Assembly (NCBI GenBank): GCA_016704485.1
Contig: JADJAA010000002.1
Span: 945,892-1,009,891 of the forward strand
Length of the DNA stretch: 64,000 nt
Source of the DNA: Flavobacteriales bacterium
Lineage (GTDB): Bacteria; Bacteroidota; Bacteroidia; Flavobacteriales_F; PHOS-HE28
Direction: 5' to 3'
Below, piece by piece: positions 6,176 to 8,784 of this stretch; within the stretch, counting starts at the first letter, position 1; every line of letters starts with the position of its first letter. The notes under the pieces are model-generated. The model saw only the letters and a list, made by a program, of their open reading frames with translations, was not told the DNA's origin and searched no databases. The position numbers and the translations under genes were made by a program.

Positions 6176-7588
6176 ATGAACGAAGGCTCCCTACCCCAAC
6201 CGGACCGAAATAGCGACCAGCTTAGTTGCGTTGAGCGTTACGAAGCAATGTTAAGTCGCAACGATCATTATTTCTTTGATGTGGAAGAGTTCGAGCTGAT
6301 CATAGAACATTACTTGGAGCTCAGCGACCTTGAAAAGGCAAAGGCCGTGCTTGAGGATGCCCAACGCCAGCATCCCGGTGCTGTGGACCTTATGTTCTGT
6401 GAAGCCCATTTATTGATGAGCTTGGGAAAGCTGAATCGTGCATTGGGGGTGTTGGACGTAATTGCCAAAGTGGAGCCTTTCAACGAGGATGTTTATTTGC
6501 ACAAGGCTGGTATTCATAGCCAACTTCGGAATTACCAGAAAGCGATCGATCACTTTAAGCGGGCGTTGGACCTAGCTGAAGAAGGGCTGGACGATATACA
6601 CCTTGACCTGGCCTTCGAATACGAGAACATGGAAGCGTTCCCATTGGCTATCGAAAGCTTGAAAAGTGCGTTGGAGATCAATCCAGAGAATGAAGCGGTC
6701 CTGTACGAACTGGCTTACTGTTTCGATCTTATCGGAAATCACCAAATGGCTGTTTCGTTCTTTCGTGAGTTCACGAATGAGCATCCTTATTCCTTCGTGG
6801 CGTGGTTCAACATGGGCAATTCACTGTCCCAGTTAGGCCGACCTGAGGAAAGCGTTGAAGCATTGGATTATTGCATAGCCATCGAAGATCGATTCACTTC
6901 AGCATACTTCAGTAAAGCGCGTAATTTATTGGAACTGGGAAAGCTACAGGCCGCAGTGGAGTGTTACAGCGAAACGATCCAGTTCGATGGTCCGCAGGCC
7001 ATAACGTATAGCTACATCGCCGAGTGTTATGAAAAGATGGAGAGCTACGAACAAGCGTTGATCCATTATGACCAATCCGTTGCGTTGGACCCGAACTGGG
7101 TGGATGGATGGATAGGCCGTGGCGTTGTTAAAGGCGTGCAGGACCGTTATGGTGAAGCGCTGAAGGACCTGGAGATCGCATTGCGGTTGTCCTCCGAACA
7201 TGGTGATGCAATGTTCTACACCGCCCATACCTTGGCGAGCTTGAAGCGTTATGAAGAGGCCTTGTCGATGTATGCAAAGCTGAATCGCAAGGAACCGGAT
7301 AGCCTTGAGGGGTGGCTGGAGCACGCTGAACTCCTGTTGGAGTTGAAAGGGCCGGACGCGGCGGCCAAGAAACTTAATGAAGGATCACATGTGCATCGGT
7401 TGAATGCGCGTTTCCGCTATCGCATGGTGAGTTACCTGTTGCGCAGTGGCAGGGAACAACAAGGCATGTTGGAAATGGAAGAGGCATTGATGGCCGACCA
7501 TGGTGCCCACGTGCAACTTTTTGAACATTATCCTGAGGCTGCATTGATGCCACAGATCATCCACTTGTTGGAACTATATCGCAGATGA
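6176..7588 (+). CDS. TPR-repeat protein
   Basis: 470 aa with multiple 34-residue TPR-like repeats and no catalytic motifs. Its stop overlaps the start of the downstream gene (ATGA). Confidence 0.65.
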   Translation: MNEGSLPQPDRNSDQLSCVERYEAMLSRNDHYFFDVEEFELIIEHYLELSDLEKAKAVLEDAQRQHPGAVDLMFCEAHLLMSLGKLNRALGVLDVIAKVEPFNEDVYLHKAGIHSQLRNYQKAIDHFKRALDLAEEGLDDIHLDLAFEYENMEAFPLAIESLKSALEINPENEAVLYELAYCFDLIGNHQMAVSFFREFTNEHPYSFVAWFNMGNSLSQLGRPEESVEALDYCIAIEDRFTSAYFSKARNLLELGKLQAAVECYSETIQFDGPQAITYSYIAECYEKMESYEQALIHYDQSVALDPNWVDGWIGRGVVKGVQDRYGEALKDLEIALRLSSEHGDAMFYTAHTLASLKRYEEALSMYAKLNRKEPDSLEGWLEHAELLLELKGPDAAAKKLNEGSHVHRLNARFRYRMVSYLLRSGREQQGMLEMEEALMADHGAHVQLFEHYPEAALMPQIIHLLELYRR

Positions 7589-8388
7589 ATTTCTCATTAT
7601 CACATATTCCTGCGCGATCGACAAAATCGCGTGAGGACGGTCTTACCATGGTCATGGACAAAGGCATATCCTTACGCCAATCCGAGGACATGATCTCTGT
7701 TTGCGGTGACCTTGTTGATGTCGTAAAACTGGGTTTCGGAACAGCGTATGTCACACCGAACCTCAAAGAGAAGATCGCATTCTACCGCAAGAACGACATC
7801 AAGGTCTATTTCGGTGGAACATTATTCGAAGCATTCATAGCAAGGGGCCGTTTCAAGGACTATTGCAAATTATTGGACAAGTTCGATGTTGATATGGCTG
7901 AGGTCTCCGATGGCAGCATCAACATGACAACCAAGGAGAAGTGCAAATACATCGGCGAATTGGCCAAGGACCGTACGGTTTTCAGCGAGGTGGGATCGAA
8001 GGAATCAGGGATCTTGATCAGCCCTGCGAAATGGGTGAACATGATGCGCGCTGAATTGGATGCCGGTAGTTGGAAAGTGATCGCAGAAGCAAGGGAAAGT
8101 GGAACCGTAGGCATTTATCGTCCGAGCGGGCATGCGCATACTTCATTGGTGAACAAGATCATGGCAAAGATCCCGAGCAAGGATATTCTGTGGGAAGCGC
8201 CATTGAAATCGCAACAGGTGTGGTTCATAAAACAAATAGGCGCCAACGTGAATTTGGGCAATATTGCACCGGAGGAGGTGATCCCGCTGGAAACACTTCG
8301 TCTCGGCCTACGCGGTGATACCTTCTTCCAATATGTTCCGGAAGAGGTGGTCAAGAAATTGCAACAAGTGGTTCCCGTAAAGAATTAA
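7585..8388 (+). CDS. comA: (2R)-phospho-3-sulfolactate synthase (ComA family)
   Basis: Family motifs D.[56 protein letters not shown]. These closely track the archaeal ComA signature as I recall it. Confidence 0.75.
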   Translation: [267 protein letters not shown]

Positions 8389-8466
8389 GGGTCATCGCTC
8401 CCTTTTTGCAAAGAGAGCACTGCTCACAATTCCATTGATTTCCATTAGGAACACGATCTTCGCGCC

Positions 8467-8784
8467 ATGAAAGAGATCACCCCCCAAGAGCTCAAAGCAA
8501 TGAAGGAAGGAAATGAAACCTTCCAGCTGATCGATGTTCGTGAAGCATATGAGGCTGAAATTTGCAGCATTGGCGGCACGTTGATCCCCATGGGAGAGGT
8601 CATCTCACGGTTGGCCGAAGTACGGAAGGACGTTCCGGTTGTCATTCATTGTCGAAGTGGCTCTCGTTCCAGCGCGGTCATTCAAGCGTTGACGGATCGT
8701 TACGGCTATACGAACCTGATGAATCTGAAAGGTGGGATCCTTGGGTACGGAAGTCAAGTGGATCAGACGTTGCGGTGCGAGTGA
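8467..8784 (+). CDS. Rhodanese-like sulfurtransferase domain protein
   Basis: 105 aa. Active-site loop CRSGSRS (Cys-X-X-Gly-X-Arg). Confidence 0.8.
   Translation: MKEITPQELKAMKEGNETFQLIDVREAYEAEICSIGGTLIPMGEVISRLAEVRKDVPVVIHCRSGSRSSAVIQALTDRYGYTNLMNLKGGILGYGSQVDQTLRCE

Follow-up and report, generated by a model that had tools for sequence, protein, structure and literature searches.

In a 64,000-nucleotide stretch of DNA from an uncultured Flavobacteriales bacterium of activated sludge (contig JADJAA010000002.1; the whole stretch is hereafter the window), a gene for a ComA family phosphosulfolactate synthase (comA) overlaps the end of an upstream gene encoding a protein built entirely of tetratricopeptide repeats (TPR). 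The two genes constitute a tightly coupled, co-inherited pair in the Bacteroidota-like lineages sampled, and this pairing is apparently undescribed. The reading preferred here, to which we assign about an even chance, is that the pair belongs to an autonomous phosphosulfolactate module, that its proximity to a sulfonolipid gene (capB) is incidental, and that cysteate is obtained from a CapA-type enzyme elsewhere in the genome. The features of the module, by position in the window, are as follows.

6094..6101, + strand: candidate Bacteroidota-type -7 promoter box TAATTTTG (consensus TAnnTTTG)
6176..7588, + strand: all-TPR protein of 470 amino acids (TPR repeats by Pfam)
7585..8388, + strand: ComA family phosphosulfolactate synthase of 267 amino acids (PF02679)
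8467..8784, + strand: single-domain rhodanese sulfurtransferase (PF00581)
8860..9522, + strand: DedA/VTT-family membrane protein (PF09335), starting 75 nucleotides past the rhodanese gene
9566..10297, + strand: short AroE, shikimate-dehydrogenase-like (Shikimate_dh_N), last gene of the same-strand run

ComA and its TPR partner

The protein encoded at 7585..8388 matched the ComA profile PF02679 over the full model (positions 2-243 of 243) with a score of 295.6 bits (E 3.4e-88; cut-off 25.2), and the signature motif quoted for it in an earlier reading of this DNA, made from the letters alone (the sequence-only reading), is present in the translation; the ComA call of that reading therefore stands. 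Against solved phosphosulfolactate synthases the protein scored 190.2 bits (1u83, B. subtilis), 158.9 bits (1qwg, M. jannaschii), and 151 bits (9cm1). A score of 252.1 bits against TIGR03849, the NCBIfam equivalog for archaeal ComA, fell under the cut-off of 280, placing the window protein within the family and outside the archaeal equivalog. A GenBank protein from a metagenome-assembled genome (MAG) is 100% identical and bears the name 'phosphosulfolactate synthase [Flavobacteriales bacterium]'. The active-site residues of M. jannaschii ComA, which we take to be E103, K137, E168, R170, and E171 (a list that reportedly goes back to Wise et al. 2003), align with E106, K139, E168, R170, and E171 of the window protein, and these columns were kept in 86-87 of 87 aligned sequences, comprising Bacteroidota-type homologues together with the B. 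subtilis and M. jannaschii references. Judged by its sequence, 7585..8388 is thus a real member of the phosphosulfolactate synthase family in which the presumed catalytic residues are intact. In methanogens and Xanthobacter, ComA acts in the synthesis of coenzyme M, and it is the basis of sulfolactate formation in Bacillus spores; family and residues predict that the window enzyme would add sulfite to phosphoenolpyruvate (PEP), giving (2R)-phospho-3-sulfolactate. The exact locus recurs unchanged on a 1.5-Mb contig of GCA_963852075.1 and is also found in MAG assemblies GCA_016707465.1 and GCA_016705805.1 and in JGI and ENA metagenome contigs.

The stop codon of the TPR gene (TGA) overlaps the comA start as ATGA at 7585-7588, in agreement with the coupling described in the sequence-only reading. 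A signal peptide was not recognizable when the N terminus of the 470-residue TPR protein was read by eye, the protein passed no specific family in an NCBIfam scan, and a search of the PDB returned only generic TPR superhelices (e.g., OGT and designed repeats).

The conservation of the pair was followed in 80 comA loci from species-representative genomes, the best 80 of 405 matches and hence biased to close relatives, among which ComA identity ranged over 64-96%. A TPR orthologue lay immediately 5' of comA in every one of these loci, even as TPR identity dropped to ~35% where that of ComA held at ~66%. The ATGA overlap was observed in 62 of 90 loci, and in all but three the two genes lay within -11 to +14 nucleotides of one another. 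Among 82 distinct TPR sequences, nearly all were 469-472 amino acids long, and 32 positions were at least 95% conserved. The coupling, which the sequence-only reading had called unusual, is instead the rule in the Bacteroidota-like loci examined.

More distant ComA clades were picked by means of 50%-identity representatives, with 2-4 loci per clade and clade taxonomy not established. In the 59% ComA clade (L087 and L088), the TPR protein has 470 amino acids and is 32% identical end to end with a single gap; the gene order is TPR, ComA, rhodanese (60% identical), and DedA (54% identical), and the genes on the 5' side are entirely different. In the 54% ComA clade (L089 and L090), a TPR orthologue of 466 amino acids (27% identical) is followed by ComA, DedA, and AroE, with stop and start codons that overlap, and the rhodanese gene is absent. 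A high-GC Flavobacteriales clade retained the TPR–ComA pair alone, all other neighbors being different. The TPR gene was absent from both non-Bacteroidota-type ComA contexts looked at, one of them actinobacteria-like (L093). Through the ATGA overlap, the TPR protein would be made in step with ComA, which it would most likely bind as a scaffold or adaptor.

Two MAGs each carried two TPR–ComA pairs (L025 and L033 in JADJXF01; L053 and L058 in JADJOG01), one pair lying in a rhodanese and GlmM context and the other in a different context; either true paralogy or bin contamination would account for the doubling. A Pfam scan of 10 longer ComA-family representatives revealed ComA fused to ComB, AMP-binding/PCP, ATP-grasp, or fumarase_C domains. 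The fusions with AMP-binding (with or without PCP), ATP-grasp ligase, and fumarase_C (P0128, P0154, P0174, P0185, P0129, and P0175) hint at sulfonated natural-product pathways built on phosphosulfolactate.

Genes downstream of comA

The rhodanese that the sequence-only reading placed 3' of comA is borne out by a PF00581 match of 48.5 bits (cut-off 22.2). Its active-site loop, C62-R-S-G-S-R, fits the six-residue pattern C-x-x-G-x-R, and the catalytic Cys was invariant in 62 of 62 orthologues. The gene was found 3' of comA in 72 of the 80 genome loci; it is missing from the high-GC clade as well as from the 54% clade. In the 59% clade the rhodanese gene stays with comA while no Aminotran_5 (cysteine desulfurase) gene was called within 10 kb, indicating that the rhodanese tracks comA and not the cysteine desulfurase. 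A partnership of the rhodanese with the neighboring cysteine desulfurase of the window was dropped on the same ground. The rhodanese would supply or handle the sulfur substrate of the module, for example by releasing sulfite from thiosulfate.

The DedA protein fell just below the cut-off of NF008102 (234.1 bits; cut-off 236), and a dedA gene also follows comA in both the 59% and the 54% clades. Links of DedA proteins to the uptake of selenite and the recycling of undecaprenyl phosphate have been described; that this one, beside ComA, transports sulfite or a selenite-like anion is speculative. The AroE protein likewise scored below the cut-off of its equivalog (TIGR00507; 165 bits; cut-off 200.2). 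An aroE gene lay 3' of comA in 44 of the 80 genome loci and also in the 54% clade, where it overlaps dedA. Both DedA and AroE may be co-transcribed housekeeping genes only.

The five genes from TPR to aroE run in one direction with gaps of -4, 78, 75, and 43 nucleotides, and neither a TAnnTTTG box on the + strand nor an intergenic terminator-like site was found within the run. The box TAATTTTG sits 75 nucleotides 5' of the TPR start codon and is the sole + strand match to TAnnTTTG between positions 1145 and 12924. Over the window as a whole the motif occurs less often than expected (19 times, compared with 30.75), many of the occurrences falling just 5' of gene starts. Taken together, spacing and motif suggest that TPR, comA, rhodanese, dedA, and aroE are probably expressed as one transcript from the box at 6094. 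Scans of the window for sigma-70 promoters and intrinsic terminators gave chance-level results, which are uninformative for this phylum.

CapB, cysteate supply and the wider window

Upstream of the module lie a second biosynthetic gene, its own promoter-like box, and a cysteine desulfurase gene.

1082-1089: promoter-like -7 box TACCTTTG of capB (match to the TAnnTTTG consensus)
1137..2381, + strand: CapB/SulA cysteate-C-fatty acyltransferase as identified by PDB search; context gene outside the ComA module
3243..4421, - strand: NifS/IscS-like cysteine desulfurase (Pfam/NCBIfam)

The sequence-only reading had described 1137..2381 as SPT-like; its assignment to the alpha-oxoamine synthases and its TFAKS motif hold, and the identity sharpens to CapB/SulA rather than Spt. 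When compared with the PDB, the protein scored 619.9 bits against 7u7h (Alistipes finegoldii SulA) and 588.6 bits against 28eh ('Cysteate-C-fatty acyltransferase'), the best scores for Spt, Kbl, and BioF being 226.5, ~196-204, and ~142 bits, respectively. None of the NCBIfam cut-offs for Spt, Kbl, and BioF was passed. An identity as Kbl beside tdh was excluded (~200 bits for Kbl and 619.9 bits for SulA). The lysine that binds pyridoxal phosphate (Lys251 of SulA) lies within GTFAKSMA. In the SulA active site, Lys281 takes the place of an Ala of Spt and sets the two enzymes apart (PMC9304779); this lysine is kept in the window protein (SQVYAKSLPMP, compared with SQLYAKSLPMP in SulA and FSASM in S. 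multivorum Spt). These comparisons identify 1137..2381 as a true CapB/SulA orthologue, by homology the first committed enzyme of sulfonolipid synthesis. A genuine CapB implies a demand for cysteate and makes it probable that this Flavobacteriales bacterium synthesizes capnine-type sulfonolipids.

The interval that separates capB from the TPR gene holds an FMN-reductase gene in the orientation of these two and, on the opposite strand, the cysteine desulfurase and GlmM genes; the sequence-only reading had correctly placed a cysteine desulfurase near comA. From their separate promoter-like boxes, capB and comA appear to be separate transcription units. The GlmM open reading frame (ORF) at 4465-5931(-) has a mechanical start at TTG 5931 and 488 amino acids, gene callers giving 468 amino acids, and the resulting 5' extension contains a TACCTTTG -7 box at 5900-5907(-); the box and the gene-caller length place the true GlmM start probably at 5871.

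Linkage of capB to comA was sparse among relatives. A capB gene lay within 10 kb of comA in 11 of the 80 genome loci, at -6.5 to -10 kb, and neither comA nor the TPR gene was present in any of 80 metagenomic capB loci (L094-L173) taken with 10-kb flanks where the contig allowed. One of these, L160, encodes a CapB that is 82% identical to that of the window and also stands beside bamD; the 10 kb downstream of it hold no comA. That capB and comA lie so close together is best read as local synteny in one clade and not as a pathway cluster, and the link drawn in the sequence-only reading, in which ComA supplies cysteate, gains no gene-context support from either set of loci.

The neighbor that capB does keep is of another kind. 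In 26 of the 80 metagenomic loci, a PALP-fold gene of ~345 amino acids lies directly 5' of capB on the same strand. The Capnocytophaga-like copy at L101:8954-9958(+) was near-identical to PDB entry 9k2p (705 bits), with cystathionine beta-synthases (CBS) next at 295 bits, and it passed NF053679 'cysteate synthase CapA' with 633.8 bits against a cut-off of 600, one copy having been tested. This match identifies the kept neighbor as capA, so that a capA-capB operon is common, though not universal. The PDB scores also reproduce the relationship between CapA and CBS; Liu et al. 2022 are said to have stated the CBS-like nature of CapA. A profile search with CapA gave a best 120 matches that were all from marine Flavobacteriaceae, and CapA homologues were widespread in named Flavobacteriaceae. 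Capnocytophaga uses CapA, a CBS-like enzyme also present in other non-gut ('environmental') Bacteroidota, whereas Alistipes and Odoribacter use a homologue of archaeal cysteate synthase (PMC10191378). With CapA and the archaeal-type enzyme, the phylum already has two recognized sources of cysteate. The archaeal-type synthase that the sequence-only reading took as the described pathway is right for Alistipes and Odoribacter and gives way to CapA in Capnocytophaga and other non-gut Bacteroidota (PMC10191378).

On the other side of capB, a 372-amino-acid GNAT-like protein is encoded convergently and just 3' in 30 of the 80 capB loci (e.g., L136:10156-11274(-) and L128:12436-13410(-)), with a weak PF00583 match and no NCBIfam family. 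A Phenol_MetA_deg outer-membrane barrel follows the GNAT-like gene in 22 of those 30 loci. Together they are possible candidates for the N-acylation and export of capnine; no homologue of the pair was found in the window.

Other enzymes that could act before or after ComA were sought in the window and around comA. The Pfam scan of the 64-kb window covered ORFs of at least 150 amino acids not overlapped by a longer ORF, leaving out overlapping antisense ORFs. Neither ComB (PF04029) nor ComC was found among the scanned ORFs or in the conserved neighborhoods L081-L090, and the scanned ORFs included no aminotransferase other than CapB and the desulfurase. Genes of CapA type or of CysK/CBS type were sought across the window and 93 comA loci with a PROSITE-like regular expression, with tblastn using E. 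coli CysK, and with tblastn using a CapA sequence recovered from the metagenomic capB loci, each time with a negative outcome. The only short-chain dehydrogenase/reductase of the window (43463..44212(-)) was considered for the part of CapC and rejected, since its score clears the FabG equivalog cut-off and it so gives no specific evidence for CapC.

Elsewhere in the window, two genes encode IS4/IS5-type DDE transposases (17160-17852(+) and 50717-51511(+)). The first adjoins a stretch of lower G+C (0.43 at 18001-20000), and the position matching the transposase varies in related contigs, with DUF4096 and DDE genes in L081 and L085. Tandem paralogous trypsin-like peptidases are encoded 3' of uvrB at 13027-14589(+) and 14698-16908(+); both carry C-terminal Por_Secre_tail (type IX secretion) domains, and the gene at 13027-14589 is kept in 19 of 80 related loci. 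A TPR-adenylate/guanylate cyclase fusion of 666 amino acids lies at 19934-21934(+), and a CHASE3 histidine kinase is encoded beside a sigma-54 activator response regulator at 26967-30263(-).

Competing explanations and comparison with known systems

In the reading of an autonomous phosphosulfolactate module, cysteate for CapB would most likely come from a CapA-type synthase, like that of other Flavobacteriales, encoded in another part of the genome. Several observations weigh against this reading. The window yielded no CapA-type enzyme, archaeal-type cysteate synthase, or other PALP gene, and a cysteate synthase within 10 kb of comA was found in 0 of 93 loci. Among the metagenomic loci, capA did not adjoin capB in 54 of 80, a non-adjacency so common that it says little either way about the source of cysteate. 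With neither ComB, ComC, nor a sink for phosphosulfolactate found, the explanation is incomplete. We know of no coenzyme M synthesis in Bacteroidota, and capnine is the only prominent sulfonate of the phylum to our knowledge, which keeps a cysteate route attractive. As to the pair itself, a TPR–ComA fusion was not seen among the 10 longer ComA-family representatives scanned, support from distant clades rests on 2-4 loci in each, and the promoter at 6094 is a candidate called by a consensus match only.

A less likely explanation, on which we place a minor share of our confidence, is that ComA starts a third cysteate route, in which PEP and sulfite would be converted to phosphosulfolactate, sulfolactate, sulfopyruvate, and finally cysteate for use by CapB. 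The steps after phosphosulfolactate would fall to a phosphatase of generic kind, a malate/sulfolactate dehydrogenase, and an aminotransferase of the aspartate type. A genuine CapB does lie 5 kb from a genuine ComA, searches of the window and of the surroundings of comA and capB in this clade turned up no known cysteate synthase, and the strong conservation of ComA within the order (64-96% identity) implies a needed product. Interconversion of cysteate and sulfopyruvate is established in methanogens. Moreover, Bacteroidota already differ in how they make cysteate (PMC10191378), and there is precedent for each step, with ComB and ComC described (PMC9457059, PMC5695019). The route is biochemically feasible. 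Set against it are the placement of capB and comA in different transcription units, their nearness in a mere 11 of 80 relatives and 0 of 80 metagenomic capB loci, and the fact that the partner kept by capB is capA (26 of 80 loci). ComB, ComC, and the aminotransferase were not found in the window or the conserved comA neighborhood, and a full-text literature search returned no paper linking ComA to sulfonolipids or Bacteroidota. Labelling in Cytophaga johnsonae by White 1984 reportedly identified serine as the carbon source of cysteate, which would fit CapA and not PEP. In a more specific form that we likewise rate as improbable, the TPR–ComA pair with the rhodanese as sulfite donor would constitute a PEP-based third cysteate route for capnine in those Flavobacteriales that have no adjacent capA. 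In such a route, the TPR protein could channel phosphosulfolactate through the generic phosphatase, dehydrogenase, and aminotransferase.

Two further explanations concern the module as such, and each appears distinctly more remote than the cysteate route. Bacteroidota ComA might have drifted to another nucleophile or enol-phosphate substrate, with the TPR protein reflecting the new role and the ComA name a misannotation. The score below the TIGR03849 cut-off (252.1 and 280 bits, respectively), a TPR partner that both non-Bacteroidota contexts looked at lack, and the failure to find ComB or ComC nearby are consistent with such altered chemistry. However, every residue that lines up with the M. 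jannaschii active site is invariant, B. subtilis YitD (1u83, a 'Phosphosulfolactate synthase' by its PDB deposition) is a nearer relative of the protein than the archaeal enzyme is, and the adjoining rhodanese fits sulfur-oxyanion chemistry. Similarly improbable is that the gene order is inherited housekeeping synteny in which TPR, rhodanese, DedA, and AroE have no functional tie to ComA. AroE, DedA, GlmM, and UvrB are indeed of housekeeping type with an order partly conserved in the same clade, and rhodanese, DedA, and AroE are each dropped from the cluster in some clades. Passive synteny is countered by the persistence of the TPR–comA pair where every other neighbor changes, by a start/stop overlap or a gap of at most 14 nucleotides held across roughly 27-95% TPR identity, and by the occurrence of the pair twice in two MAGs. 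This pattern is much stronger than passive synteny for TPR and comA, and weaker for rhodanese, DedA, and AroE.

The conserved TPR partner and the usual rhodanese turn what would be a stray ComA annotation in Bacteroidota into a defined, testable module. Should the module feed sulfonolipids, it would add a third source of cysteate for lipids that have been linked to gliding motility, to immune signaling in hosts, and to choanoflagellate development. Should it not feed cysteate, these bacteria would make an unidentified sulfonated metabolite. 'Sulfur' genes lying close together in one genome are no evidence for a pathway.

With respect to known systems, the capnine pathway of Capnocytophaga and Ornithobacterium comprises CapA, CapB, and CapC; in contrast, the window has no adjacent capA, and no CapA or dedicated CapC was found in its 64 kb. 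The window gene at 1137..2381 is nonetheless a CapB/SulA orthologue with the diagnostic Lys281. In the phosphoserine-dependent route of Methanosarcinales, cysteate synthase is followed by transamination to sulfopyruvate, an enzymatic interconversion (PMC9457059); this cysteate-to-sulfopyruvate step is the reverse of the one that a ComA-to-cysteate route would need, and neither an aminotransferase of this kind nor a cysteate synthase was encountered in or near the TPR–ComA module. The coenzyme M pathway of Xanthobacter autotrophicus employs XcbB, a bacterial ComA homologue outside the methanogens, followed by XcbC, XcbD, and XcbE (PMC9457059), whereas no XcbC-like aspartase/fumarase-family gene or other xcb gene was found in the window.

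An actinobacteria-like cluster (L093:5575-14421) encodes a FAD-binding protein, fumarase N and C parts, ComA, PAPS reductase, APS kinase, and ATP sulfurylase, and continues with TauE and a sulfotransferase, with a SARP-type regulator nearby. By its gene content it looks like a complete sulfate-to-sulfonate cassette, and the PAPS reductase, APS kinase, and ATP sulfurylase genes suggest that sulfite supply is encoded beside ComA there, a precedent for the role proposed for the rhodanese. The Bacteroidota TPR–ComA module, in contrast, is without such fumarase-type and sulfate-activation genes. ComA of M. jannaschii (1qwg) and YitD of B. subtilis (1u83) differ from the window protein in context, the window gene having no ComB, ComC, or ComDE neighbors and a TPR gene on its 5' side; they belong to the same Pfam family over its full length, and the same reaction would be expected here.

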